A stretch of DNA of 32,000 nt. Source: Nostoc sp. PCC 7120 = FACHB-418. GTDB lineage: Bacteria > Cyanobacteriota > Cyanobacteriia > Cyanobacteriales > Nostocaceae. Numbering within the stretch: position 1 is the stretch's first letter; each line of letters begins with the position of its first letter. The notes below the pieces were generated by a model. That model made no database searches, was not told where the DNA came from, and saw only the letters and a program-made list of their open reading frames with translations. Where the stretch lies: NCBI RefSeq assembly GCF_000009705.1, contig NC_003272.1:2790001-2822000 (forward strand). Reading direction: 5' to 3'. Positions 6,127-32,000 of the stretch are shown here, piece after piece. A program made the translations under genes and the position numbers.

Positions 6127-8769
6127 ATGCAGCCTACAGATCCCAATAAATTTACTGATAAAGCCTGGGAAGTCATTGTCAAATCTCAGGATATAGTTCG
6201 TGCATATCAACAACAACAACTAGACGTTGAACATTTAATTCTTGCTCTGATAGAAGATCCTACTAGTTTAGCTGTGCGGATTTTGGGTCGCGCAGAAATT
6301 GACCCGATTCGCTTACAACAGCAATTAGAAGCTTTTACCCAGCGTCAAACCAAAGTAGGCAAAAGTGACCAACTTTACCTCGGTCGTAGCTTGGATGTTA
6401 TGCTTGACCGCGCCGAGGAAATTAGGGAGCGGATGAAGGATGGCTACATTTCTGTAGAACATATGCTCCTAGCTTTTGTGGATGATGAACGTGTTGGTAG
6501 GAAGGTACTCAAAGGTTTTAATGTAGACAGTGCCAAGATAGAAGCAAGTATCAAAGCCGTTCGTGGTAGCCAAAAAGTGACAGACCAAAACCCAGAATCC
6601 CGCTATGAAGCATTACAGAAATTTGGTAGGGATTTAACAGAACAGGCAAAGTCGGGTAAGTTAGACCCAGTGATTGGACGAGATGACGAAATTCGTCGGG
6701 TAATTCAGGTGTTATCTCGTCGGAGTAAAAATAATCCCGTCTTGATTGGTGAACCTGGGGTGGGTAAGACAGCGATCGCTGAAGCTTTGGCACAGCGTAT
6801 AGTTAATGGGGATGTCCCGGAATCTCTGAAAAACCGTCAATTAATCTCTCTCGATATCGGTAGTTTGATTGCTGGGGCAAAATATCGGGGTGAATTTGAA
6901 GACCGATTAAAAGCCGTCCTCCGGGAAGTTACGGAATCAAACGGTAATATTGTATTATTTATTGATGAACTACATACCGTCGTCGGCACTGGTTCCAACC
7001 AACAAGGGGCAATGGATGCAGGTAACTTGCTCAAACCCATGCTGGCAAGGGGTGAGTTGCGGTGTATTGGGGCGACAACTTTAGATGAGTTTCGTAAATT
7101 CATTGAAAAAGACGCAGCTTTAGAACGACGTTTTCAACAGGTGTACGTAGACCAACCGAGTGTGGAAAATACAATCTCCATTTTGCGCGGGTTGAAGGAA
7201 CGCTACGAAGTCCATCACAATGTGAAAATTTCCGATTCCGCACTAGTAGCCGCAGCAACTTTATCAGCTCGTTACATTGCTGACCGCTTCCTACCAGATA
7301 AAGCCATTGATTTAGTCGATGAAGCCGCAGCCCAATTAAAAATGGAAATCACTTCCAAACCAGCAGACTTGGAAGCCATTGACCGCCGCTTGATGCAGCT
7401 AGAAATGGAAAAGCTCTCCTTGGCGGGAGAGGAGAAAGTAGCAGCGCCTACTAAGGAACGTTTGCAGCGAATTGAGTTAGAAATCACCAATTTAACTGAA
7501 AAACAGCAGGATTTAAACAATCAATGGCAAGGTGAAAAGCAGGTACTAGAAGCCATTAGTTTGTTAAAGAAAGAAGAAGACGCTTTAAGGGTGCAGATTG
7601 AGCAAGCAGAACGGGCTTACGATTTGAATAAAGCGGCGCAGTTGAAGTATGGCAAACTAGAAGGAGTACAGCGCGATCGCGAAGCTAAAGAAGCGAAACT
7701 CTTAGAACTACAAAGTCAAGGTTCTACCTTGTTGCGTGAACAAGTCACCGAAGCCGACATCGCCGAAATCGTCGCTAAGTGGACAGGTATCCCCGTAAAT
7801 CGTCTGTTGGAATCAGAACGGCAAAAACTCCTACAACTCGAAAGCCACTTACATCAACGGGTGATAGGACAACAGGAAGCCGTGGAAGCAGTATCAGCCG
7901 CTATTCGTCGCGCCCGTGCGGGAATGAAAGACCCCAACCGTCCCATCGGTTCATTTCTATTTATGGGGCCGACTGGTGTAGGTAAAACCGAACTCGCCCG
8001 CGCTTTAGCCCAGTTCCTCTTTGACGCTGATGATGCTTTGGTGCGCTTGGATATGTCTGAGTACATGGAAAAACATTCTGTCTCCCGCTTAGTTGGCGCG
8101 CCTCCTGGTTATGTAGGCTACGAAGAAGGTGGGCAACTTTCCGAAGCAGTCCGCCGACATCCTTATTCTGTGGTGTTATTGGATGAAGTCGAAAAAGCAC
8201 ACCCCGATGTGTTCAATATTTTATTGCAAGTATTAGATGATGGGAGAATTACTGATTCCCAAGGCAGAACAGTAGATTTTCGTAATACCGTCATTGTCAT
8301 GACCAGTAACATCGGTAGCGAACATATTTTAGACGTTTCCGGTGATGATACCCAGTATGAGACAATGCGAAATCGGGTCATGGATGCCTTGCGATCGCAC
8401 TTCCGCCCCGAATTTCTCAACCGTGTTGATGATACAATTCTTTTCCACGCCCTCAGCCGTTCTGAGATGAGCCACATCATCCGCATTCAACTAAAACGAG
8501 TGGAAAGTCTCCTCAGAGATCAAAAAATCTCCTTTGAAATCTCTCCAGCCGCCTGTGATTTCCTCGTAGAAAAAGGCTATGACCCAGTTTACGGCGCACG
8601 TCCCCTAAAACGAGCCATTCAGAGAGAAATCGAAAACCCCCTCGCCACCAAAATCTTAGAAAATACCTTTATCTCCGGTGACACCATTTACATAGACCAA
8701 GATGAAAACGGTTTAAGTTTCACTAACAAAGCACCAGTAAAAGTTTCGGTAACACAAATCACAACCTAG
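6127..8769 (+). CDS. clpB: ATP-dependent chaperone/disaggregase ClpB
   Basis: 880 aa. Two AAA+ modules (GEPGVGKT and GPTGVGKT Walker A motifs), a long middle coiled-coil domain and a Clp N-domain. Confidence 0.97.
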
Positions 8770-9038
8770 CCAATTTTACAGAGACTGGTTTGATGATACC
8801 TCCCTCCGCGCCCCTCTGCGCTTACCTCAGCGCCCCTCAGCGTTTAAATGATATGTAGGGAAATCCGAATCACCGCTTGGGGGCAAACAATCCTAGCAAA
8901 AAGCAGCGATCGCTTAAACTATACCTTGAAAATCTTCATTAGTCCCATGCTCTTTTATATCTTGGGCATCTACCCATGATCATAAAAAGCTAAGATGTCT
9001 TGACTAAACAAATAGTTTCAGATACTAAAATCAAAATC

Positions 9039-11015
9039 ATGCTAGAGCAAGGCACCATCAGTATTCATACTGAGAATATTTTCCCAATTATCAAGAAATC
9101 CCTCTACTCAGACCATCAAATTTTCCTGCGGGAACTAGTCTCTAACGCTGTAGATGCTATCCAAAAGCTGAAAATGGTATCCCGTGCGGGAGAATATGCA
9201 GGAGTAGTTGATGAACCAGAGATTCAACTCGCCATCGACAAAGATAAAAAAACCCTGTCCATCACCGATAACGGTATCGGGATGACAGCAGAAGAAGTCA
9301 AAAAATATATCAACCAAGTCGCCTTTTCTAGCGCTGAAGAGTTTATTCACAAATATCAGGGAAAATCAGACCAGCCAATCATCGGTCACTTTGGACTGGG
9401 TTTCTATTCCTCCTTCATGGTGGCGCAAAAGGTAGAAATTGATACTCTCTCCTATCAAGAAGGAGCGCAAGCAGTCCACTGGAGTTGTGACGGTTCCCCA
9501 GAATTTACCCTAGAAGAATCATCCCGCACCACCATCGGGACTACCATCACCCTGACTCTGTTACCAGACGAAGAAGAATATTTAGAATCAGCGCGGGTAA
9601 AAAATCTCGTCAAGACTTATTGCGACTTCATGCCAGTACCTATCAAACTGGATGGTGAAGTATTAAACAGACAAAAAGCACCTTGGCGGGAGTCTCCCAG
9701 CAACCTGACAAAAGAAGATTATTTAGAATTTTACCGCTATCTCTATCCTTTCCAAGAAGAACCCTTACTGTGGGTGCATCTAAACACCGACTATCCCTTT
9801 ATTATTAACGGGATTCTGTATTTCCCCAAAATGCGTCCTGATGTGGATGTCACCAAAGGACAAATCAAGTTATTCTGCAACCAAGTTTTCGTCAGTGATA
9901 ACTGCGAAGAAATTATCCCCCAGTTCCTTGTACCCATGCGGGGCGTAATCGATAGTACGGATATTCCCCTTAACGTATCACGTAGTGCCTTACAAGGCGA
10001 TCGCACCGTCCGCAAAATCGGCGATTATATAGCGAAAAAAGTCGGCGACAGACTCAAAGAACTATACCGCGACGACCGCGAACAATATATTAGTGCATGG
10101 AAAGACTTAAGCACCTTTGTCAAATTCGGTGTCCTCAACGACGAGAAATTTAAAAAGCAAGTCGAAGACATAATTATTTTCCGCAGTACCGTTAAATGGG
10201 AACAACCAGCAGAAACGCCAGCCGTTGAGGTACAGTCCCAAGAAGGAGATGTTTGGCAAGATATCACCCCTTCCCCCGACTCTCCCACACCAGGCTTACC
10301 ATACACAACCCTGAAAGAATACTTAGAACGCAACAAAGAACGCCACGAAAACCGCGTATTTTACAGCACCGATGAAGCAACCCAAGCCACTTATATAGAA
10401 CTACACAAAAACCAAGGCTTAGAAGTTTTATTCCTCGATTCCTTCATCGACACCCACTTTATCAACTTCCTCGAACAGGAATATCAAGATGTCAAATTTA
10501 CACGGGTAGATTCTGACCTCGATAATACCTTGCTCGAACAAGACAAAGCCGGGGAAATTGTTGACCCCACCACAAATAAAACCAAGAGTGAGATCATTAA
10601 AGAGTTATTTGAGAAATCCCTCAATAAACCTAAAGTCAACATCCGCACTGAAGCACTCAAGTCTGATGATCCTCAAGGTACACCACCGGCGATCGTTCTC
10701 TTACCAGAATTTCTCCGCCGCATGAGGGAAATGACCGCCATGATGCAGCAGCAAAACGCAGATTTTCCCGAAGACCACATTTTACTAGTGAATACAGCCC
10801 ATCCCCTAATTCAAAACTTGGTAAACCTCAACCAAGGTGCAATTATTCAAGGCGATGGAGAATCAACCACAAATCCCTTAGTCAACTTAATTTGTCAACA
10901 CGTTTACGATTTAGCGTTAATGTCCCAGAAAGGTTTCGACGCAGAAGGAATGAAATCTTTTGTCGAACGTTCCAACGACGTATTAACCAAGCTGACCCAA
11001 CAAGCCAAAAATTAG
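9039..11015 (+). CDS. htpG: molecular chaperone HtpG (Hsp90)
   Basis: GHKL ATPase motifs ELVSNAVDA and DNGIGM, and Hsp90 length. The track ORF begins at TTG 9000. ATG 9039 (MLEQGTISIHTENIFPIIKK) matches the usual HtpG N-terminus. Confidence 0.95.
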   Translation: MLEQGTISIHTENIFPIIKKSLYSDHQIFLRELVSNAVDAIQKLKMVSRAGEYAGVVDEPEIQLAIDKDKKTLSITDNGIGMTAEEVKKYINQVAFSSAEEFIHKYQGKSDQPIIGHFGLGFYSSFMVAQKVEIDTLSYQEGAQAVHWSCDGSPEFTLEESSRTTIGTTITLTLLPDEEEYLESARVKNLVKTYCDFMPVPIKLDGEVLNRQKAPWRESPSNLTKEDYLEFYRYLYPFQEEPLLWVHLNTDYPFIINGILYFPKMRPDVDVTKGQIKLFCNQVFVSDNCEEIIPQFLVPMRGVIDSTDIPLNVSRSALQGDRTVRKIGDYIAKKVGDRLKELYRDDREQYISAWKDLSTFVKFGVLNDEKFKKQVEDIIIFRSTVKWEQPAETPAVEVQSQEGDVWQDITPSPDSPTPGLPYTTLKEYLERNKERHENRVFYSTDEATQATYIELHKNQGLEVLFLDSFIDTHFINFLEQEYQDVKFTRVDSDLDNTLLEQDKAGEIVDPTTNKTKSEIIKELFEKSLNKPKVNIRTEALKSDDPQGTPPAIVLLPEFLRRMREMTAMMQQQNADFPEDHILLVNTAHPLIQNLVNLNQGAIIQGDGESTTNPLVNLICQHVYDLALMSQKGFDAEGMKSFVERSNDVLTKLTQQAKN

Positions 11016-13091: not shown

Positions 13092-13775
13092 ATGCAAACT
13101 GAGGTTTTTAGTGATATTTTCCCCTTATTGAGTACAGCCACTCCACAAACCTTAGAATGGCTACTCAATATTGCAATTGATCATGAATATCCCACTGGTA
13201 GAGCAGTTTTAATGGAAGATGCCTGGGGTAATGCAGTTTATTTCGTTGTATCTGGATGGGTAAAAGTTCGGCGCACCTGTGGAGATGATTCGGTAGCTTT
13301 AGCAATTTTAGGAAGGGGTGATTTTTTTGGAGAAATGGCGATTTTAGATGAATCTCCTCGCTCAACAGATGTAATTGCTCTTTCACCAGTCAAGTTACTC
13401 AGTATTTCTAGAGAACGTTTTATTCAAATTTTATTTAAAGACCCACAATTGCATCATAGAATGCTGCAATTAATGGTGCGACGATTACGACAAATTAACC
13501 AACGGTTACAAATCCGTTCTTCACCACCTGCTGTGAAATTAGCTCATACCTTAGTTAGTTTGGGTGAGAGCTATGGTCAAGAATCTACACAAGGTAGGGA
13601 AATTTTTAATATCCCTTTTAAGGACTTAGCAGAGGTTACAGAAATCGGTGTTGAAGAAACTAGCAAAATTATGGATAAATTGCACGATAAAGGGTGGATA
13701 AAAATTGACAGTACTAATAATATTATCTATCTGATAAATTTCAAACAATTGCTGAATTTAGCGGGAAAAGTCTAA
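13092..13775 (+). CDS. Crp/Fnr-family transcriptional regulator (cNMP-binding domain plus C-terminal HTH)
   Basis: 227 aa. GDFFGEMAILD...RSTDV cyclic-nucleotide-binding signature and a C-terminal HTH region. It is not NtcA itself. Confidence 0.85.
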   Translation: MQTEVFSDIFPLLSTATPQTLEWLLNIAIDHEYPTGRAVLMEDAWGNAVYFVVSGWVKVRRTCGDDSVALAILGRGDFFGEMAILDESPRSTDVIALSPVKLLSISRERFIQILFKDPQLHHRMLQLMVRRLRQINQRLQIRSSPPAVKLAHTLVSLGESYGQESTQGREIFNIPFKDLAEVTEIGVEETSKIMDKLHDKGWIKIDSTNNIIYLINFKQLLNLAGKV

Positions 13776-17482: not shown

Positions 17483-18907
17483 ATGACAACCCCACAAGAA
17501 GTCTTGAAAAGAATTCAAGATGAAAAAATTGAGCTGATTGACCTCAAGTTCATCGATACAGTAGGTACATGGCAGCACCTCACCTTGTACCAAAACCAAA
17601 TCGATGAAAGCTCATTCTCTGATGGCGTACCTTTTGATGGTTCCAGCATCCGGGGTTGGAAAGCAATCAACGAGTCAGACATGACAATGGTTCTCGATCC
17701 CAACACTGCTTGGATCGACCCATTCATGGAAGTGCCAACACTAAGTATTGTTTGTAGCATTAAAGAACCACGCACAGGAGAATGGTACAACCGTTGTCCA
17801 CGGGTTATTGCTCAAAAAGCAATAGACTACTTAGTATCTACGGGTATTGGTGATACAGCCTTCTTTGGCCCTGAAGCTGAATTTTTTATCTTTGATAGCG
17901 CCCGCTTTGCCCAAAACGCTAACGAAGGTTACTACTTCCTCGACTCTGTAGAGGGTGCTTGGAATTCTGGTAAAGAAGGTACAGCAGATAAACCCAACTT
18001 GGCTTACAAACCACGTTTTAAAGAGGGTTATTTCCCTGTTTCCCCCACAGATTCTTTCCAAGACATCCGGACAGAAATGTTGTTGACGATGGCGAAATTA
18101 GGCGTACCCATCGAAAAACATCACCACGAAGTTGCTACTGGTGGTCAGTGCGAGCTAGGCTTCCGCTTTGGTAAGTTAATCGAAGCTGCTGACTGGCTGA
18201 TGATTTACAAATATGTCATCAAGAACGTTGCCAAAAAATATGGCAAAACCGTCACCTTCATGCCAAAACCAATTTTTGGTGATAACGGTTCTGGTATGCA
18301 CTGTCACCAATCTATCTGGAAGGATGGCAAACCTCTCTTCGCAGGTGATCAGTATGCTGGCTTAAGTGAAATGGGACTGTACTACATTGGTGGTCTTCTC
18401 AAGCACGCCCCAGCACTGTTGGCAATCACCAACCCCAGCACCAACTCTTACAAGCGTCTAGTTCCTGGTTATGAAGCACCAGTTAACTTGGCTTACTCCC
18501 AAGGAAACCGTTCTGCTTCCATCCGTATTCCTCTGTCTGGCACTAACCCCAAAGCCAAGCGTTTAGAGTTCCGTTGTCCAGATGCTACCTCTAACCCTTA
18601 TTTGGCATTTGCTGCCATGCTGTGCGCTGGTATCGATGGTATCAAGAACAAAATTCATCCTGGTGAGCCATTAGATAAAAACATCTATGAACTTTCTCCA
18701 GAAGAATTGGCAAAAGTTCCTTCCACACCTGGTTCTTTAGAACTAGCATTGGAAGCGCTAGAAAACGACCACGCTTTCTTAACAGATACAGGCGTATTCA
18801 CCGAAGACTTTATCCAAAACTGGATTGACTACAAACTAGCTAACGAAGTTAAACAGATGCAACTGCGTCCTCATCCTTATGAGTTCTCTATCTATTACGA
18901 CGTTTAA
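17483..18907 (+). CDS. glnA: glutamine synthetase type I
   Basis: 474 aa, a full-length GSI sequence ([32 protein letters not shown]...GSGMHCHQS...[11 protein letters not shown]). Confidence 0.98.
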
Positions 18908-19069: not shown

Positions 19070-19273
19070 TTAGCTCATCGAAGCATTACTACGACCATAA
19101 ATCGTGCGAGTGGTGGGATCGATCTTTCCTTGAGTGGGGTTCCAGTAGTGGGACAGTTCTTCAGCAGGAAGACCGAGTTCTTGTGCGGAACGCATCAGCA
19201 TAGATTGTTGACGATTCTTCACTTGCTGATATTGGCGCATCATAATGGCACGAGATTTTTCTTGAATAGACAT
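19070..19273 (-). CDS. gifA: glutamine synthetase inactivating factor IF7
   Basis: 67 aa, MSIQEKSRAIMMRQYQQVKNRQQSMLMRSAQE...IYGRSNASMS. This matches the conserved IF7 pattern (ALMMRxxQxxKNRQQSML ... RSNAS) that I remember from Synechocystis GifA. It is convergent with glnA, as in PCC 7120. Confidence 0.9.
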   Translation of the reverse strand: MSIQEKSRAIMMRQYQQVKNRQQSMLMRSAQELGLPAEELSHYWNPTQGKIDPTTRTIYGRSNASMS

Positions 19274-19319: not shown

Positions 19320-19350
19320 AATATAGCAAGAATTCTGTATCTTATGCTAC
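19320..19350 (-). promoter_or_regulatory. gifA promoter with NtcA operator in repressor position
   Basis: The minus strand reads GTAGCATAAGATAC (19350..19337, a perfect GTA-N8-TAC), then 11 nt, then TATATT (19325..19320). The box therefore overlaps the -35 region, centred near -30. This is the geometry of NtcA-repressed gif promoters. Confidence 0.75.
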
Positions 19351-19584: not shown

Positions 19585-20469
19585 ATGACAGTCGTTTATC
19601 CACGGAAATTTCAGAATACTTTGAGTGCGAGGGATATTCTCAAACAGGTAGTAAGCGATCGCGAAATTCACCTGATCACCCTCAACCGCTATCGTTATAG
19701 TGAGCAGCGCAGTTGTAAAGACCTGACAGACCTGATTGAAAGGTTAAATGGCAAGCCACCGGAACTAATCAGAGATTTATCTCACCACATCTCAGATGAA
19801 GCGCGTCATGCCATGTGGCTAACTGATTTGTTGGTCGATTTAGGTGCGAATGTAGGAACGCCTCCTGGTAATTCCTACATCGATGAGTTTGAAAGGTTAT
19901 TGGATAGCGAACAGCAAGACCCTACCCAAGCACTAGAAGAATTTGTAATTTCTACCCTAGCGGCGATTAACGTCACCGAGAAACGTGGTTGCGAGTATTT
20001 TTCAGCCCACATTTACGCCCTCAAAAAAGCGCCCCAAACAGCAGAAAATATCCAAATCCGCGAAACCATTGCAAAAATTCTGCCCGAAGAAGCCGGACAC
20101 GTTCGTTGGGGTAATCGCTGGTTAGCACAGATAGCAAATAAAAGCCCAGAACATCGGCAAAAAGTCGAACAAGCCAAACGCAAATATGCTGCCATTGAAC
20201 AAGCAGCCTTTGAATCAGGGATGGATATTACTTTAGGTGCAGAACTGCGGCGAGTTGCGAATCTGATGGGAGTCGCAAATACAATGCCCATGTGGCAACG
20301 ACCCCAATATCTAATGGAACGTTTACCACAAACTTTGCTAGCACCTCAATTGCAATTTACAAGAATTCAAGCTGCTCAAAGAGCTTGGCAACGCAATCCA
20401 CAAACATTTATGGAAAAGTTCGTACCAATGTTTATCAATGGTGTGAAGAAGATGGAAAATAAGCCTTAG
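19585..20469 (+). CDS. ferritin-like di-iron carboxylate superfamily protein (function unknown)
   Basis: 294 aa, predicted all-helical. Two E-x-x-H motifs (DEARH and EEAGH), each preceded by a helix with a conserved Glu (SEQRS, TEKRG), giving the E...ExxH...E...ExxH pattern. Confidence 0.7.
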   Translation: MTVVYPRKFQNTLSARDILKQVVSDREIHLITLNRYRYSEQRSCKDLTDLIERLNGKPPELIRDLSHHISDEARHAMWLTDLLVDLGANVGTPPGNSYIDEFERLLDSEQQDPTQALEEFVISTLAAINVTEKRGCEYFSAHIYALKKAPQTAENIQIRETIAKILPEEAGHVRWGNRWLAQIANKSPEHRQKVEQAKRKYAAIEQAAFESGMDITLGAELRRVANLMGVANTMPMWQRPQYLMERLPQTLLAPQLQFTRIQAAQRAWQRNPQTFMEKFVPMFINGVKKMENKP

Positions 20470-20949: not shown

Positions 20950-21183
20950 CTAAGCAATTAGATGAGCATTGCTATAAGTTTCTATGAGACTTCTACGTCC
21001 AGTACCGCGATGTGGTTGGGGTTTTTCTGGTTGATTACGTTTGGGTTTAGATTTTAGTGAGATCATATTTTGTGAATTAGAGGGAGAAAAAGCGAAATCG
21101 TGACTAGCTATTCCCAGGTAATCAGAAACTAGGGAACCAAGTACTAGACTCGAAATTAAAACTGGAACAGCAGCACGCATCAT
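20950..21183 (-). CDS. patX: PatX-like small protein carrying the HetR-inhibitor-type pentapeptide RGTGR
   Basis: 77 aa. Hydrophobic N-terminus (AAVPVLISSLVLGSLV), K/P-rich spacer (KSKPKRNQPEKPQP), then HRGTGR encoded by CGC GGT ACT GGA CGT on the minus strand at 21009..20995. A TCCGGA motif lies about 55 nt upstream of the ATG. Confidence 0.8.
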   Translation of the reverse strand: MMRAAVPVLISSLVLGSLVSDYLGIASHDFAFSPSNSQNMISLKSKPKRNQPEKPQPHRGTGRRSLIETYSNAHLIA

Positions 21184-21205
21184 AAAAGTCTCTTTGTAAA
21201 TTCTC

Positions 21206-21243
21206 TTATCTATTGCTACTGAGTTTTATATAACGAGTCCGGA
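21206..21243 (-). promoter_or_regulatory. DIF1 (TCCGGA) -35-type motif and putative -10 upstream of the RGTGR ORF
   Basis: TCCGGA at 21238..21243. On the minus strand it is followed by 19 nt and then TAGCAA. This is the same layout as TCCGGA-N18-TAGGTT upstream of hetR in this window. Confidence 0.6.
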
Positions 21244-21268
21244 AGAATCTAAAAAAAAGTAGTGCTTT

Positions 21269-23056
21269 TTACTGAAAATCCATGAAAGTGTGCATGGTGT
21301 CAATATATTCCACCAACAACCAATGACCGGAAGGATTGAGATGACCCCGAACCGTCAGATGTTGCTTATCTGTCAAGGCTTGTAGCTGTTCATTGATGTG
21401 CGATCGCAAAGTTACAAGCTGACAAGTGTGTCCTAGATTAGCAGCCGGAGCAGCGATCGTGAATCTGTAATCCTGCTGATTTAAAACCTGAAAAACGCCT
21501 GTGAAGGAATTATTTGCCCGTGTAAGTACTGATTTGGCTTCTGAGTGATAGTACTGATACAGAGAATCTGGGCAATTGCCGCTATCTGGATAGAGTTGAG
21601 GCTCCTTTAGGTAATACATTTGCCATTGCAACCATTCCGGATGACTAGGTAATAAATTAAATAAAGGCATGATGGCAGAGGGAGAGCGATTATCTTGTAA
21701 CAATGCTTCTTGTAATGCTTTTACAGGTAAATCCCTTGGTTGACAGCTTAACTCTGCACACATAGCCGCAGCCATTCCCGCCGCTTGACCGATACCCAAA
21801 ACTACAGGTTGTAATCTAGTCGCCCCATTAGCAATATGGGAAACAGAAATATTCTTTTCACAAACTAATAAACCATCTGCTGTAGCTGGAACCAGACAAC
21901 GGTAGGGAATCGTAAAAGGTGTTCCCGTCCAACGTCCTCCCCAACGGATGGATTTAGGTTGTAGTGGCAAGTCAAACCCAGGATAGTGATGGTCATTGGC
22001 ATAATTACCAATAGCGATCGCATCTGGAAACAAAGATGCTACCTGACCACCGGGAACTGGCAAAATATCCTGTTCTCGAACAGTAGTTAGCCCCACCAAG
22101 CGCCGACTTTCTCTGTAGTATGGGTGTAATGCAAATGCCGACGAAGCATGAGGAAAAACTTGCTCTGCCAAACCGTAACGCCGACCAAGCTGAGTTTGGA
22201 TAAAATGAGCAAAATTTTGGCTATGCCAACGAGATTCTTGGAAAAAATCACCCTTAGCTGCTGCTGATTCTATTAGCCGTCCTACTCCTTCGCCGTAGTC
22301 ATTACCACAAATCGGCCAGTTAATCATAAAGAGATTTCCTGGCAAACGTCCATAATTTAAGAATTGCTCTGCACCGTAGTTTTCCCAAGCTCCAGCAAAC
22401 AGCGCCGCATCATAATTAGGTGCAGGGGGAATTTTTGGCGCGACTGGTTCCCCAAAGTCCTGCATCACTACCACCCAAGTAGGCGATTGCACAGGATATC
22501 TTGCTGTTAGATCATTAAAACTACTTGGGGCGCTTGGTTCTTCCCATTCAGATTGCAACTCCCAACCCCAACGGTAAGGGATATCTGCTAAAGCTAGTAA
22601 ATCTCCCAACTCTGTACCGTCAATAGTAATTTTGGCTTGCACGGTAAAGTCTGCGAACCTGACACCAGTGATGGAATTATCTTGTTGCAAAACTTCTAGA
22701 GGTACTTGTCCAGAAATCCAGTGCAGATTTGTTAGTTCCTGTACCCAGTCAGCAAAGATTTCCGCTCCAATACGGGGATCATAACTAAAAAAACTCACCC
22801 AACTATTATCTAATCCCCCTGGCTGTCGCTGTTGTAATTCCTGTAAAAAAGCACCCCATAACCCCGTCTGAAACGCCATTAATTCATTACCATCAGGTGC
22901 AGATACTCCAGCAGCAGTTAACATTCCTCCTAGCCAAGGAAACTCACTGACCAACATAGTTTTTGCACCTCTGCGAGCTGCTTGAATGGCAGCCGCAGTT
23001 CCTCCGGTTCCCCCACCAACGACTAAAACATCAGTTAAATAAGTTTGATTAACCAT
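21269..23056 (-). CDS. FAD-dependent oxidoreductase (FAD_oxidored-like) with extra C-terminal domain
   Basis: 595 aa. N-terminal dinucleotide-binding motif DVLVVGGGTGGTAAAIQAARRG. Substrate unknown. Confidence 0.8.
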   Translation of the reverse strand: MVNQTYLTDVLVVGGGTGGTAAAIQAARRGAKTMLVSEFPWLGGMLTAAGVSAPDGNELMAFQTGLWGAFLQELQQRQPGGLDNSWVSFFSYDPRIGAEIFADWVQELTNLHWISGQVPLEVLQQDNSITGVRFADFTVQAKITIDGTELGDLLALADIPYRWGWELQSEWEEPSAPSSFNDLTARYPVQSPTWVVVMQDFGEPVAPKIPPAPNYDAALFAGAWENYGAEQFLNYGRLPGNLFMINWPICGNDYGEGVGRLIESAAAKGDFFQESRWHSQNFAHFIQTQLGRRYGLAEQVFPHASSAFALHPYYRESRRLVGLTTVREQDILPVPGGQVASLFPDAIAIGNYANDHHYPGFDLPLQPKSIRWGGRWTGTPFTIPYRCLVPATADGLLVCEKNISVSHIANGATRLQPVVLGIGQAAGMAAAMCAELSCQPRDLPVKALQEALLQDNRSPSAIMPLFNLLPSHPEWLQWQMYYLKEPQLYPDSGNCPDSLYQYYHSEAKSVLTRANNSFTGVFQVLNQQDYRFTIAAPAANLGHTCQLVTLRSHINEQLQALTDKQHLTVRGHLNPSGHWLLVEYIDTMHTFMDFQ

Positions 23057-23554: not shown

Positions 23555-25042
23555 TTATTTATTCTTGGGATTTTTTAATAGTAAAACTAACACTGCTCCC
23601 GAAAGAACGCCACCGATCCAGCCAAACATAGAGTTAACTAAAATCCACCAACCTGCTTGCTCAACAAATTGCCTAAGGATAAACCATTGAATAATCCCAA
23701 CTATAGGGCCAATCCACAGTAAGGAATATTCAGGATAATCACCACACACGAGAACAGAAATACAAACGCCTAGTGTAGTTCCTAATACCCACTGCTTTTC
23801 AGATACAGGAATTAACCGCCGTAAAACTAATACCTGCATGAAGCCGATGGTCAATGCTATTGTGATGGCTACGGCTTGGCTACTGAGAATTGTACCAAGT
23901 GGCTCGAAAATTTCGTGAGCGATCGCCCCCACAATTCCGCCACCAACTAAACCGACGATATTAACTAGTACCCATTGCAAATAGAAACCTATGCCTACTG
24001 GCGGTTTGGCAGTGATGGGAGGGGGGGAAGCTATCAATTTTTGTGGGATTTCTTGACGATACTGGGCTGGGACTGCGGGTGGCGGAGAATATAGAGGAGG
24101 TTCTGCAACTTGCGGGGTATTACCATGATTTTTTACAGGTAAAGTCGGCTTAGATCCAGGTGGTGGAGATGTTTGCGTTGGTGCATAAGCATTTCCCAAG
24201 TTCTGCACCGTCGCTAAAGCCTCGACTGCTGACTGATAGCGTTGGCGAAAGTCGTAACGTACCATTCTATCTAATACATCTGCTAAACTTGGGCTGACCT
24301 GGACTAATTCACGCCAAATAATTTCTGCCGTCTGGATATCTTCTTGCAACTGATGAGGCATCAATCCTGTCAAAGCTTGAATACCAATCATTCCCACAGC
24401 ATAGACATCACTACTTAATCGAGGGCTACCACGACTTTGTTCACTAGGCATATAGCCAGCAGTACCAATACTCACGGTCATTTTAGTTACACCTTCACCA
24501 TTCACCACCTGAGTACCGATCTGTTTTACTGCCCCAAAGTCAATTAGCACAACTTTGCCATCACTTTTACGACGAATCAGATTAGGTGGTTTGATATCCC
24601 TATGAATGACGTTATTTTGATGAACAAAAGCTAAGGGTTGCAGGATATTTTTTAACAGAGCGATAGTATAAGGCTCACTTAATCGCTTTCCTGGAGTCAG
24701 TTCATCACTAAGAGGATGTCCATCAATGAACTGTTGAACCAGAAAAAACTCTTGATGTTCTTCAAAGTGTGCCAGTAGTTGGGGAATTTGGTCGTGGGTT
24801 CCTAATTTATGTAATAACTCTGCTTCCGATGCAAATAAGCGCCTAGCGACTTGTAAAGTCATAGGATCATTAGCCATCGGTTGGAGTTGCTTGACGACAC
24901 AGAGATTATTGTAAAGTTTAATGTCTTCAGCAATGTAAGTTTTACCGAAACCACCAGCACCTAAAACTTGAGTAACTTTATAGCGTCCGTCTAATAACTG
25001 ACCCAACATACAGGCGATTACCTCCGGTAGTGCGTAGCCCAT
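23555..25042 (-). CDS. Ser/Thr protein kinase with Pro-rich linker and C-terminal polytopic membrane domain
   Basis: 495 aa. Hanks motifs GAGGFGKTY, VVK, HRDIKPPN, DFG and SEQ, then a Pro-rich linker and about 5 hydrophobic helices with an internal (Q/G)W(V/W)(L/I)LVN repeat. The start could instead be Met12 (25009). Confidence 0.9.
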   Translation of the reverse strand: MGYALPEVIACMLGQLLDGRYKVTQVLGAGGFGKTYIAEDIKLYNNLCVVKQLQPMANDPMTLQVARRLFASEAELLHKLGTHDQIPQLLAHFEEHQEFFLVQQFIDGHPLSDELTPGKRLSEPYTIALLKNILQPLAFVHQNNVIHRDIKPPNLIRRKSDGKVVLIDFGAVKQIGTQVVNGEGVTKMTVSIGTAGYMPSEQSRGSPRLSSDVYAVGMIGIQALTGLMPHQLQEDIQTAEIIWRELVQVSPSLADVLDRMVRYDFRQRYQSAVEALATVQNLGNAYAPTQTSPPPGSKPTLPVKNHGNTPQVAEPPLYSPPPAVPAQYRQEIPQKLIASPPPITAKPPVGIGFYLQWVLVNIVGLVGGGIVGAIAHEIFEPLGTILSSQAVAITIALTIGFMQVLVLRRLIPVSEKQWVLGTTLGVCISVLVCGDYPEYSLLWIGPIVGIIQWFILRQFVEQAGWWILVNSMFGWIGGVLSGAVLVLLLKNPKNK

Positions 25043-28433: not shown

Positions 28434-30689
28434 ATGGGGCGATTTGAGAAGCGACCAGACAACGACCCGCGAGTCCGAGGCGAGTTATCCAGGGCAGCAG
28501 AAACAGCTCTATGGGCTGTTGTGGAAGATTTAGAAAGTCTACAGCAGAATGTCCTCAGATCATTTCAGGAAGAAATCAAAAAACTACAGACAGAAAAAGA
28601 CCGTTTAACAGATGAAGTTCAGCAGCTAATTGAAGAAAAAGAACATTTACAAGAGGTACGGCGGATTACAGAGCAGCAAGTATTAATCCGTCAATTGTCA
28701 GAAGCTTTAGCCAAGCACATCTGTTCTCAATTGCAATCATCACTAGCGAAAATAGCCAACCAAACAGAGAGCCAAATAGCTGCTCTCAAGTCAGCCCAAA
28801 GCATCGGCCCTGCTATCGAGAACAATGAGCAGGTAGAAAAAATGCTGGGTAGTCTAGACGATAACCTGACGATCGCCTTTAATTCTCTCCAACAAGAACT
28901 CAAAAACTACCAAAGTAATCTCTCCCAGCAGTTGTCTCGAATGTATAACCAACAGCAGCAAGGAGAAACAATTGTCGAAGAGTTAATTGATCGTCTACGT
29001 GGGGAATTGACAAGAGCTATCCAAGAAACATCAACAGCGAAAGCTCAGTTATCCCCGCCAACGGTGTTGCAGCCTCCAGAACTACAACCCCCAAGCTCTC
29101 CGGTGGTAGTGAATTTATCACCACCTACGGTATTGCAATTTCCTGATCAACAATCGCCCAATCCTTTACAAGCATCTACACCATTAGAGGAGACTAGCAC
29201 TACCAAGCCATCGGTTAGTATTACTCCTCCTGAGAAATCAACACCAGTAACAATAGTTCCACCACCCCAGGAAACACGACCAGAAACAAAGTCTGTCATC
29301 CCCAAGGTGTCACCAGACAGCGAGACGAAATTACAATCATCTCAGGAAAAAGCTGCTGAACCAAGTTCTGTAATTAACAGAGAATTATCTGCGGGTGCGG
29401 CTAAATCTCCACTAACTCCAGAAAAACCTCCTGAGCCAATTTCTACAAGTAAAACGAAGTTCTCACCCTCCTCAGAAAAACCTCCTGAGCCGATTTCTAC
29501 AAGTAAAACTAAGTTCTCACCCTCCTCAGAAAAACCTCCTGAGCCAGTTTCTGTACTCAGTCGAGATTCATCGGCAAGTAAAGCTTCAACTCCTCCGCCT
29601 GCACCAGTAGTCAGACGGGGATCAACACCTTCCTCATCAAGATCACGTAAATCATCTAACTTGTCACCAGTCCAAGTGGGTTTTTTGTTGGTAGTGTTGT
29701 CCACGGTGATGACAGCGTTATACAACGTAGTCCTGAAGGGGATGTTCTATAAAACTTCTCAACTCTCCGCAATGCTGGAAGTGGCGGGGTTAATCTCGCC
29801 GACCTTGGGAAATATTATGTTAATTCTGACTTTGCGGTTAATGGTGGTTGTACCACTAATGATACTTTTAGCACCCATGATGTATCCGCAAGTGTGGCAG
29901 GATTTGCAAAACCTGAAGCAATCATTAGGCAATAATCAGTCTGGAAGTCGTTCTCAGCCACAGAGATTTGTCCAGTTAATGTTTGCTAGTGGCTGCTTTT
30001 TGTTTTTATCGCAAGTTCTGATTTATCTGGCCATTGGTCAAGTCCCCACCGGAGTGGCGATCGCCCTTTTCTTTGTCTATCCACTGATCAACGGGGTGTT
30101 ATCCTGGCTTCTGTTCCGCGATCGCCCCGGTGTATTTCGCGCTAGTGCGATCGGCGCTATTTTCTGTGGTGAGGTGCTAGTTTTTGCGGGAGCAACCAGC
30201 ACTGGTATAGGAACTACTCCCCTTGGTAGCATCACCGCAATTCTTGCTGGTGCAGCCTTTGCTTGTTACCTCATCCTGACCCGCGTATGTGCGGCTAAAG
30301 TCCATCCAGTATCTTTGTCTTTGATTAACTTCGTCACCATGTTGGGGTTGAGTTTTATCTTCTTGATGATACCGTTACCGGAAAACTGGAGCTTAGTTGT
30401 TGACCCTTCTAAGTTACTGGAAATTGTGTTAAGTGCTTTTATTTTGGGTGCTTTAACTCTATTGAGCTATGTATTTAGCCATATTGGGATCAATAAATTA
30501 GGTGGGTTGCGGTCAGCTATTATTAGTGCAAGTGTACCTATTTTGACAGTAATTCTTGCTGGTTTGGTACTTCAAGAAACTTTAAACATTGCCCAAATAT
30601 TCGGAGTTTTATTCGTCACTTTTGGGGCAATTGCTTTTGGTATTGGCAAAATACAAAATCCCAACAAACCTGCCAATGCAGAAGGTTAA
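28434..30689 (+). CDS. sepJ: septal junction protein SepJ (FraG): coiled-coil domain, Pro/Ser/Thr-rich linker, DMT/EamA-type permease domain
   Basis: 751 aa. N-terminal heptad-rich about 200 aa, P/S/T-rich linker to about aa 410, and a C-terminal 9-10 TM EamA-like permease. It lies immediately upstream of hetR. Length, architecture and position match the published SepJ/FraG (alr2338, from memory). Confidence 0.88.
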   Translation: MGRFEKRPDNDPRVRGELSRAAETALWAVVEDLESLQQNVLRSFQEEIKKLQTEKDRLTDEVQQLIEEKEHLQEVRRITEQQVLIRQLSEALAKHICSQLQSSLAKIANQTESQIAALKSAQSIGPAIENNEQVEKMLGSLDDNLTIAFNSLQQELKNYQSNLSQQLSRMYNQQQQGETIVEELIDRLRGELTRAIQETSTAKAQLSPPTVLQPPELQPPSSPVVVNLSPPTVLQFPDQQSPNPLQASTPLEETSTTKPSVSITPPEKSTPVTIVPPPQETRPETKSVIPKVSPDSETKLQSSQEKAAEPSSVINRELSAGAAKSPLTPEKPPEPISTSKTKFSPSSEKPPEPISTSKTKFSPSSEKPPEPVSVLSRDSSASKASTPPPAPVVRRGSTPSSSRSRKSSNLSPVQVGFLLVVLSTVMTALYNVVLKGMFYKTSQLSAMLEVAGLISPTLGNIMLILTLRLMVVVPLMILLAPMMYPQVWQDLQNLKQSLGNNQSGSRSQPQRFVQLMFASGCFLFLSQVLIYLAIGQVPTGVAIALFFVYPLINGVLSWLLFRDRPGVFRASAIGAIFCGEVLVFAGATSTGIGTTPLGSITAILAGAAFACYLILTRVCAAKVHPVSLSLINFVTMLGLSFIFLMIPLPENWSLVVDPSKLLEIVLSAFILGALTLLSYVFSHIGINKLGGLRSAIISASVPILTVILAGLVLQETLNIAQIFGVLFVTFGAIAFGIGKIQNPNKPANAEG
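29421..29555 (+). repeat. 54-bp tandem repeat x2.5 in the sepJ linker (18-aa unit EKPPEPISTSKTKFSPSS)
   Basis: Units at 29421..29474 and 29475..29528 differ at 3 positions. A partial third unit runs 29529..29555. Confidence 0.95.
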
Positions 30690-31328: not shown

Positions 31329-31358
31329 TCCGGATAATAGGGAAAGTCCTTGTAGGTT
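31329..31358 (+). promoter_or_regulatory. hetR heterocyst-specific promoter: DIF1 motif TCCGGA plus -10 TAGGTT
   Basis: TCCGGA 31329..31334, 18-nt spacer, TAGGTT 31353..31358. The predicted TSS is about 31365-31367, that is about -271 relative to the hetR ATG. This agrees with the published -271 TSS (from memory). Confidence 0.75.

Positions 31359-31613: not shown

Positions 31614-32000
<387 letters not shown>

Follow-up and report, generated by a model that had tools for sequence, protein, structure and literature searches.

PatS and PatX each contain an RGxGR peptide that binds HetR and blocks its binding to DNA, and both genes have a DIF1 (sigma-HetZ) promoter that is active in differentiating cells. 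The two proteins have no sequence homology outside the pentapeptide. In PCC 7120, PatS is 17 aa long, ends in RGSGR and has no export signal, whereas PatX is 77 aa long and has a signal peptide and a tail of 14 residues after the motif. HetN is a protein of about 290 aa that resembles ketoacyl reductases. Like PatX, it contains a HetR-inhibiting pentapeptide (RGSGR, internal), and its overexpression suppresses heterocysts (PMC7761841). HetN is a late protein of committed and mature heterocysts, with a part in pattern maintenance (PMC7761841), and, unlike that of PatX, its precursor is probably both synthesized and cleaved in the cytoplasm (PMC12756182). Known DIF1 promoters, among them those of hetR (transcription start point at -271), patS, nsiR1, sigC and the hep genes, have TCCGGA as the -35 element and a TGNA-type -10 element at a distance of 16–17 nt.

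The genetics of patX have been studied directly in PCC 7120. Overexpression blocks heterocysts, and a single knockout has wild-type timing and pattern, with no phenotype in nitrogen-free medium (Khudyakov et al. 2020, PMC7761841). When both patS and patX are lost, differentiation is synchronous and lethal, and in nitrogen-containing medium one of the two proteins is enough to keep a semiregular pattern (PMC7761841). Khudyakov et al. describe the PatX of PCC 7120 as impaired in cell–cell signalling in nitrogen-free medium (PMC7761841). The peptide HRGTGR binds HetR with a Kd of 88 nM as determined by ITC, and in an EMSA HetR no longer binds the hetP promoter when the peptide is present (Xu et al. 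2025, PMC12756182). Co-expression of HetL suppresses the patX overexpression phenotype (PMC12756182).

Export and processing of PatX, which a preliminary description of this locus made from the DNA sequence had left open, were reported in 2025 as depending on a Sec signal peptide and on PatP (Alr1666) (PMC12756182). Each of the two signal peptides predicted for PatX can mediate MBP export in E. coli. Removal of the signal sequence makes PatX inactive, an effect that is overcome by co-expression of cytosolic PatP, and loss of patP together with patS produces the phenotype seen upon loss of patS and patX (PMC12756182). PatP is expressed along the whole filament, although less so in heterocysts. 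Cleavage of PatX has been located solely in a fusion protein in E. coli, at a point 27 residues to the N-terminal side of the motif; in Nostoc, PatX-sfGFP was cytosolic, and the PatP cleavage product was faint (PMC12756182). The authors themselves list the native cleavage sites and the compartment as limitations of that study (PMC12756182).

We analyzed a 32,000-nt window of the Nostoc sp. PCC 7120 chromosome (NC_003272.1, positions 2,790,001 to 2,822,000) that contains an easily missed ORF of this kind. The list of ORFs and their translations places a 77-aa, ATG-initiated ORF on the minus strand at 20950..21183 (77 codons plus stop), with the product MMRAAVPVLISSLVLGSLVSDYLGIASHDFAFSPSNSQNMISLKSKPKRNQPEKPQPHRGTGRRSLIETYSNAHLIA. 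An exact protein look-up matched it to BAB74031.1 and other records on 183 contigs, with the source name "heterocyst-inhibiting protein PatX". The ORF also passed the NCBIfam equivalog model NF047413 (PatX) at 63.6 bits against a cut-off of 30 (E = 2.1e-17, residues 2-65), which was its sole NCBIfam match. A Pfam scan of the 77-aa protein returned no family, and its homologues carry precomputed PF28278 (PatX) assignments. The chromosome coordinates agree as well. Published clones carrying patX (asl2332) cover bp 2,803,179-2,813,409 of the Anabaena PCC 7120 chromosome (Khudyakov et al. 2020, PMC7761841), and the published NtcA site at chromosome position 2,811,259, upstream of asl2332 (PMC3898017), corresponds to window position 21259.

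Based on sequence identity, the NCBIfam equivalog model and chromosome coordinates, this ORF is patX (asl2332), the gene that the preliminary description had named. It matches the PatX of Elhai and Khudyakov (2018) in sequence, chromosome position, architecture, DIF1 promoter and NtcA box, and is in fact the type example. We rejected membership in the PatS family on the basis of the length of 77 aa, the signal peptide and the 14 residues that follow the motif. HetN was rejected because the protein is 77 aa long, its only NCBIfam match is PatX and a Pfam scan of the ORF product detected no reductase domain. Such ORFs had been expected to be labelled hypothetical; this no longer describes the databases, where an NCBI equivalog model and Pfam PF28278 now exist, although older records still read "unknown protein".

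The gene was not new. Publications already cover patX itself, the class of its promoter and the sigma factor involved, the target of the peptide, and the export of PatX and the peptidase that processes it. Nearly all of the experiments that the preliminary description had suggested are likewise in the literature: overexpression, deletion, combinations with patS and hetN, a promoter-gfp fusion, ITC and EMSA. What the present analysis adds is only a refined -10 element, the NtcA box, a conserved linkage to an oxidoreductase gene and a conserved tail length. The biological importance of patX has likewise already been published for this exact gene. That so small a regulatory gene (77 aa) and its promoter could be recognized from the DNA letters alone does, however, make the locus a positive control for sequence-only reading.

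Translation, hydropathy and composition bore out the architecture first proposed for the protein, namely a hydrophobic N-terminus followed by a spacer rich in lysine and proline. Codons 1-20 (21124..21183, minus strand) encode a predicted Sec-type signal peptide consisting of MMR and the hydrophobic core AAVPVLISSLVLGSLV. Residues 4-19, which lie behind the N-terminal MMR, are strongly hydrophobic (mean Kyte-Doolittle 2.23), and a hydrophobic N-terminus is conserved in the homologue alignments. An alternative published prediction extends the signal peptide to residue 31, down to position 21091 (PMC12756182). The Lys/Pro-rich spacer KSKPKRNQPEKPQP is encoded by codons 44-57 (21013..21054) directly before the active peptide and includes five K/R and four P residues. 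It is followed by HRGTGR, the HetR-binding hexapeptide (PatX6), at codons 58-63 (20995..21012). Within it, RGTGR comprises residues 59-63, and its codons CGC GGT ACT GGA CGT lie at 21009..20995, exactly where they had been placed. The C-terminal tail RSLIETYSNAHLIA accounts for the remaining 14 residues (codons 64-77, 20953..20994), and this count too was exact.

We searched for homologues in two ways. A single-sequence search of 1.84 billion cluster representatives yielded 12 relatives, and a profile search yielded 225 homologues at E <= 0.001; 127 homologue sequences were fetched. Pfam PF28278 (PatX) was present on all 120 matches listed, out of the 225. Identity to the PCC 7120 protein ranged from 27 to 97%. 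The expectation that a homologue search would recover RG[ST]GR proteins held in the slightly wider form RG[S/T/G]GR: every one of the 127 sequences contains RGxGR, as RGSGR in 110, RGTGR in 16 and RGGGR in one. PCC 7120 PatX thus carries a minority allele (16/127) rather than the majority RGSGR (110/127).

Conservation extends to both sides of the motif. Across the 127 homologues, the 13 residues preceding it follow the pattern K-P-K-P-N-Q-P-E-x-P-x-P-H, and the first five positions of the tail follow [RK]-[EDS]-L-[MI]-E. In 104 of the 127, the tail has a length of exactly 14 residues. These flanks are compatible with protease recognition sites. However, because most of the sequences are from Nostocales, much of the flank conservation may simply reflect relatedness.

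The DIF1 motif TCCGGA, which serves as the -35 element of patX, is at 21238..21243 on the minus strand and starts 60 nt before the patX ATG. We compared this region with ten orthologous loci, from Nostoc parmelioides, Anabaena subtropica, Nostoc TCL26-01, Calothrix PCC 7507, Cylindrospermum PCC 7417, Cylindrospermopsis raciborskii, Calothrix NIES-2100, Heteroscytonema crispum, Aetokthonos hydrillicola and Halotia branconii. Counts out of 11 below include the window. An exact TCCGGA occurs 60 or 63 nt before the patX ATG in 10 of 11 loci. A consensus scan identified AGTA (21217..21220), 17 nt after TCCGGA, as the conserved -10-type element: TCCGGA-N17-AGTA is present in the same 10 of 11, including Cylindrospermopsis, Heteroscytonema and Aetokthonos despite their diverged flanks. 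The Halotia locus has TCCGGG and GGAA at the aligned -35 and -10 positions. The preliminary description had reported TCCGGA at 21238..21243 followed 19 nt later by TAGCAA. Both placements are correct, with TAGCAA at 21218..21213. As a promoter partner, however, TAGCAA did not survive the comparison, since conservation is confined to its initial TA, where it overlaps the end of AGTA.

The promoter consensus of sigma-HetZ is TCCGGA-N16-17-TGNA-N7-9-T (2026 PNAS HetZ paper, PMC13342950). We allowed at most two mismatches to this consensus for membership. The patX promoter, TCCGGA-N17-AGTA-N8-T, has a single mismatch (A for T in the -10 element), and this AGTA, together with a bound NtcA box directly upstream, sets it apart from the other DIF1 promoters. 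By fit to the consensus, the predicted transcription start is the T at 21208 on the minus strand, 8 nt after AGTA, which would leave a 25-nt leader; the start probably lies near this position rather than near 21205, as had been suggested. The same window holds a second relevant TCCGGA, that of hetR (31329..31334), which matches the sigma-HetZ consensus without a mismatch and places the predicted start 274-276 nt upstream of the hetR ATG, near the known transcription start point at -271/-272.

The suggestion that patX is wired for expression in differentiating cells agrees with published experiments. When fused to gfp, the minimal patX DIF1 promoter gives hetZ-dependent expression in heterocysts and proheterocysts (PMC7377430). 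HetZ has since been identified as a sigma factor for TCCGGA at -35, and patX is among the genes that it activates directly (PMC13342950). The sigma factor role was established by ChIP-seq, in vitro transcription, reconstitution in E. coli and a cryo-EM structure (PMC13342950).

Upstream of the DIF1 motif is an NtcA box, GTAAAAAGCACTAC, at 21259..21272 on the minus strand. It is a perfect match to the NtcA consensus GTA-N8-TAC and overlaps the TAA stop codon of the upstream gene, which encodes a 595-aa oxidoreductase. GTA-N8-TAC is exact in 9 of 11 loci, has one mismatch (GTG) in Cylindrospermum and is diverged in C. raciborskii. The box, at 21272..21259, did not figure in the preliminary description. 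Elhai and Khudyakov, in a 2018 abstract, are said to have placed a DIF1 motif within 69 nt upstream of patX and, in heterocyst-forming strains, an apparent NtcA-binding site before it.

NtcA binds this site in vivo. Region 933 of a published NtcA ChIP-seq data set (Q = 0, coverage 4221, peak at 2811279) was assigned upstream of asl2332, and the asl2332 transcript is listed as ACTIVATED after nitrogen step-down (PMC3898017 Table S1). The NtcA site predicted for region 933 is GTAGTGCTTTTTAC at 2811259 (Picossi et al. 2014, PMC3898017), and this 14-mer sits at window positions 21259..21272. The center of the box is approximately 57 nt upstream of the predicted start, compared with the canonical -41.5 of class II NtcA promoters. 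We infer that the box adds a nitrogen-status input to patX.

The gene upstream of patX encodes a FAD-dependent oxidoreductase of 595 aa (21269..23056, minus strand). The two genes are co-oriented and separated by 85 nt. In nine of the ten other loci, patX is likewise approximately 100 nt downstream of a co-oriented FAD_oxidored gene of about 600 aa; Aetokthonos has no oxidoreductase gene directly upstream of patX and nevertheless keeps the DIF1 motif. On the other side of patX, the window contains a gene for a DUF455 protein (19585..20469, plus strand), a 67-aa ORF (19070..19273, minus strand) at the position of gifA (asl2329) and glnA (17483..18907, plus strand). The orthologous loci usually have a DUF455 gene, a 66-aa gene and glnA beyond patX. 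The remaining annotated neighbors in the window are a Ser/Thr kinase gene (all2334; 23555..25042, minus strand), sepJ (alr2338; 28434..30689, plus strand) and the 5' part of hetR (alr2339; 31638..32000, plus strand), which runs off the end of the window. This partial hetR is 95% identical over 120 aa to a gene with HetR Pfam domains at the Aetokthonos locus. The neighbors of patX agree with the chromosomal placement of the window. An Rfam scan of the window gave no match.

The check for synteny with hetR, which had been proposed alongside the homologue search, turned out differently from the motif. The window hetR is 10.4 kb from patX, and hetR was found at about 10 kb or nearer in only 2 of 11 loci, namely the window and Aetokthonos (4.5 kb). 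We therefore rejected conserved, tight patX-hetR synteny. Because hetR is near patX in so few loci, the association between the two genes is mainly one of co-occurrence in genomes, and a 2025 phylogenomic survey likewise reports that patX and hetR co-occur in genomes.

Neither of the two motifs that draw attention to this locus is decisive alone; the comparative data are. The motif RG[ST]GR has one match in the six-frame translation of the window, with 0.09 expected, and its chance probability in 32 kb is approximately 0.08. An ORF as short as 77 aa might on those grounds be a chance frame whose RGTGR is a coincidence. We rejected this reading, the probability of which we regard as practically negligible, because of conservation and published experiments: 225 homologues have the same conserved architecture, RGxGR is present in 127 of the 127 examined, the ORF passes the curated equivalog model NF047413, and the published genetics and biochemistry concern this exact gene. 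TCCGGA, for its part, shows no enrichment in the window (5 matches, compared with 4.26 expected; 41 of 100 shuffles reach 5). This would suit a reading in which most patX transcripts come from read-through of the oxidoreductase gene or start at a sigma-70 promoter activated by NtcA, and TCCGGA is incidental. The shared orientation of the two genes and the short gap between them, here and in nine of the ten other loci, are in keeping with that reading, as are the strong NtcA ChIP peak and the conserved GTA-N8-TAC box in the gap. However, the position of TCCGGA-N17-AGTA is kept in 10 of 11 loci, and Aetokthonos retains the motif with no oxidoreductase gene directly upstream to supply read-through. 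The NtcA box is centered near -57 rather than -41.5, a search of the patX strand for sigma-70-like promoters found none, and the minimal DIF1 fragment suffices for heterocyst-specific, hetZ-dependent gfp expression. Transcription mainly by read-through or from a sigma-70 promoter is thus very unlikely, and we favor the DIF1 promoter.

A further alternative accepts the same gene and the same peptide, and concerns only the range of action. PatX in PCC 7120 might not be mainly a diffusing signal; it might act in or near the cell that produces it, titrating HetR as a safety brake. PatX would then matter most in nitrogen-replete medium, and PatS and HetN would carry lateral inhibition. The preliminary description had called PatX a diffusible HetR inhibitor. 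Inhibition of HetR has been demonstrated (PMC12756182), whereas "diffusible" is stronger than the genetics of PCC 7120 allow (PMC7761841). The wild-type timing and pattern of the patX knockout in nitrogen-free medium, the synchronous, lethal differentiation upon loss of both patS and patX, and the minority RGTGR allele (16/127 compared with 110 RGSGR) are all consistent with local action. The same is true of a minimal HetR-PatX / sigma-HetZ-PatU circuit, in which PatX is the sole source of RGxGR: differentiation starts but yields contiguous cells, and addition of PatS resolves the pattern (PMC13342950). On the other hand, export is required for activity and PatP is present along the whole filament, with less in heterocysts, so action outside the producing cell is favored. 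In addition, either PatX or PatS alone sustains a semiregular pattern in nitrogen-containing medium, and HetL, for which a site of action within the heterocyst has been described, shields HetR against the peptide in vivo. On balance, we consider a largely local role for PatX rather unlikely, although we retain it as a rival reading of its range of action.

We are therefore highly confident that patX in PCC 7120 is a DIF1-transcribed gene for a Sec-exported, PatP-processed precursor of a HetR-inhibiting peptide. In this mechanism, patX is read from a DIF1-type promoter with TCCGGA as the -35 element, AGTA as the -10 element and transcription predicted to begin near 21208. The promoter is turned on in differentiating cells via HetZ, an ECF-type sigma factor which HetR in turn induces, and NtcA occupies the upstream box after nitrogen step-down as a probable input of nitrogen status. 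The 77-aa product is a pre-pro-peptide, with a Sec signal peptide that carries it out of the cytoplasm, a step that has been shown to be necessary for activity. Genetics and an E. coli reporter show that the conserved peptidase PatP (Alr1666) then cuts the exported PatX. The released, HRGTGR-containing peptide binds HetR and prevents it from binding DNA, so that differentiation is under negative feedback. PatX of PCC 7120 is largely redundant with PatS, dispensable on its own in the absence of combined nitrogen and essential when patS is missing.

We tentatively extend this DIF1-transcribed, exported precursor model by two further ideas, which we regard as possible rather than probable: the flanks of the PatX motif may guide recognition by PatP or by a second protease acting on the C-terminal side, and the NtcA box and the sigma-HetZ promoter may together integrate nitrogen status with cell fate in the manner of an AND gate. 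If the reading of the flanks is true, the tail is part of the maturation signal and is not dispensable.

A final detail concerns the start codon. Two adjacent ATGs open the patX ORF. Because most homologues start with MR- rather than MMR-, and because PatX of Trichormus variabilis is annotated as 76 aa, the true start may be the second ATG. The length given for PatX in the literature is 77 aa (PMC13342950).

Directly upstream of patX on the minus strand lies an FAD-dependent oxidoreductase gene (PF12831; 21269..23056). Its product is about 600 aa long, and patX follows in the same orientation about 100 nt downstream. We examined ten orthologous patX loci from other cyanobacteria (L001-L010) for this arrangement, which recurs in all seven for which it could be read from gene calls (L003-L008 and L010, at around 8100..9900 of each locus). 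In L001 and L002 the oxidoreductase gene upstream of patX was recognized by the similarity of the upstream sequence. Aetokthonos was the only locus among those compared to have no FAD-dependent oxidoreductase gene directly 5' of patX. The linkage of patX to this gene is far tighter than its linkage to hetR. We know of no functional connection between patX and an FAD-dependent oxidoreductase.

The stop codon of the oxidoreductase gene is overlapped by a perfect NtcA box (GTA-N8-TAC, 21259..21272), which ChIP-seq found to be occupied by NtcA (region 933; PMC3898017). Counted from the patX start that the consensus predicts, this box is centered at about -57 rather than at the canonical -41.5, suggesting that NtcA may co-activate the sigma-HetZ promoter of patX from an unusual position.

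A consensus scan also identified a sigma-HetZ promoter upstream of hetR (alr2339), the 5' part of which occupies 31638..32000 on the plus strand and is truncated by the end of the window. The TCCGGA at 31329..31334 (plus strand) is a perfect fit, and the promoter reads TCCGGA-N16-TGTA-N7/9-T, the consensus without mismatch. The start predicted from this motif is 274-276 nt 5' of the ATG, near the known heterocyst-specific hetR transcription start at -271/-272. Directly 5' of hetR is the gene for the septal junction protein SepJ (alr2338; 28434..30689, plus strand; 751 aa), which has a C-terminal EamA permease domain. An EamA gene likewise adjoins hetR in Aetokthonos; in Calothrix PCC 7507 and Cylindrospermum, an EamA gene is found 7-9 kb upstream of patX.

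Two adjacent ATG codons are present at the 5' end of patX (21178..21183, minus strand). The N-terminus is MRA or MRV in 110 of the 127 PatX homologues and MMR in only 10, and the patX product of Trichormus variabilis is annotated in a 76-aa form. Judged from these sequences, translation may in fact begin at the second ATG. The tail that follows RGxGR in patX (20953..20994, minus strand) is 14 residues long, exactly the length seen in 104 of the 127 homologues, and it opens with the conserved [RK]-[EDS]-L-[MI]-E.

Other NtcA sites are present in the window. A 67-aa ORF convergent with glnA (19070..19273, minus strand) occupies the position of gifA (asl2329), which encodes a glutamine synthetase inactivating factor, and most orthologous loci have a 66-aa gene in the equivalent relative position. 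Upstream of the ORF is the NtcA box GTATCTTATGCTAC (19337..19350), the gifA repressor site of the ChIP-seq table, whose listed binding site position, 2,809,350, is the end of this box (PMC3898017). In its 3' portion, the Ser/Thr kinase gene all2334 (23555..25042, minus strand) contains the NtcA-type box GTAGTTCCTAATAC (23775..23788), which matches ChIP-seq region 934 (peak 2,813,771, "internal 3' end"; PMC3898017). A CRP-family regulator of 227 aa, with a cNMP-binding domain and HTH_Crp_2, is encoded about 7 kb from patX (13092..13775, plus strand).
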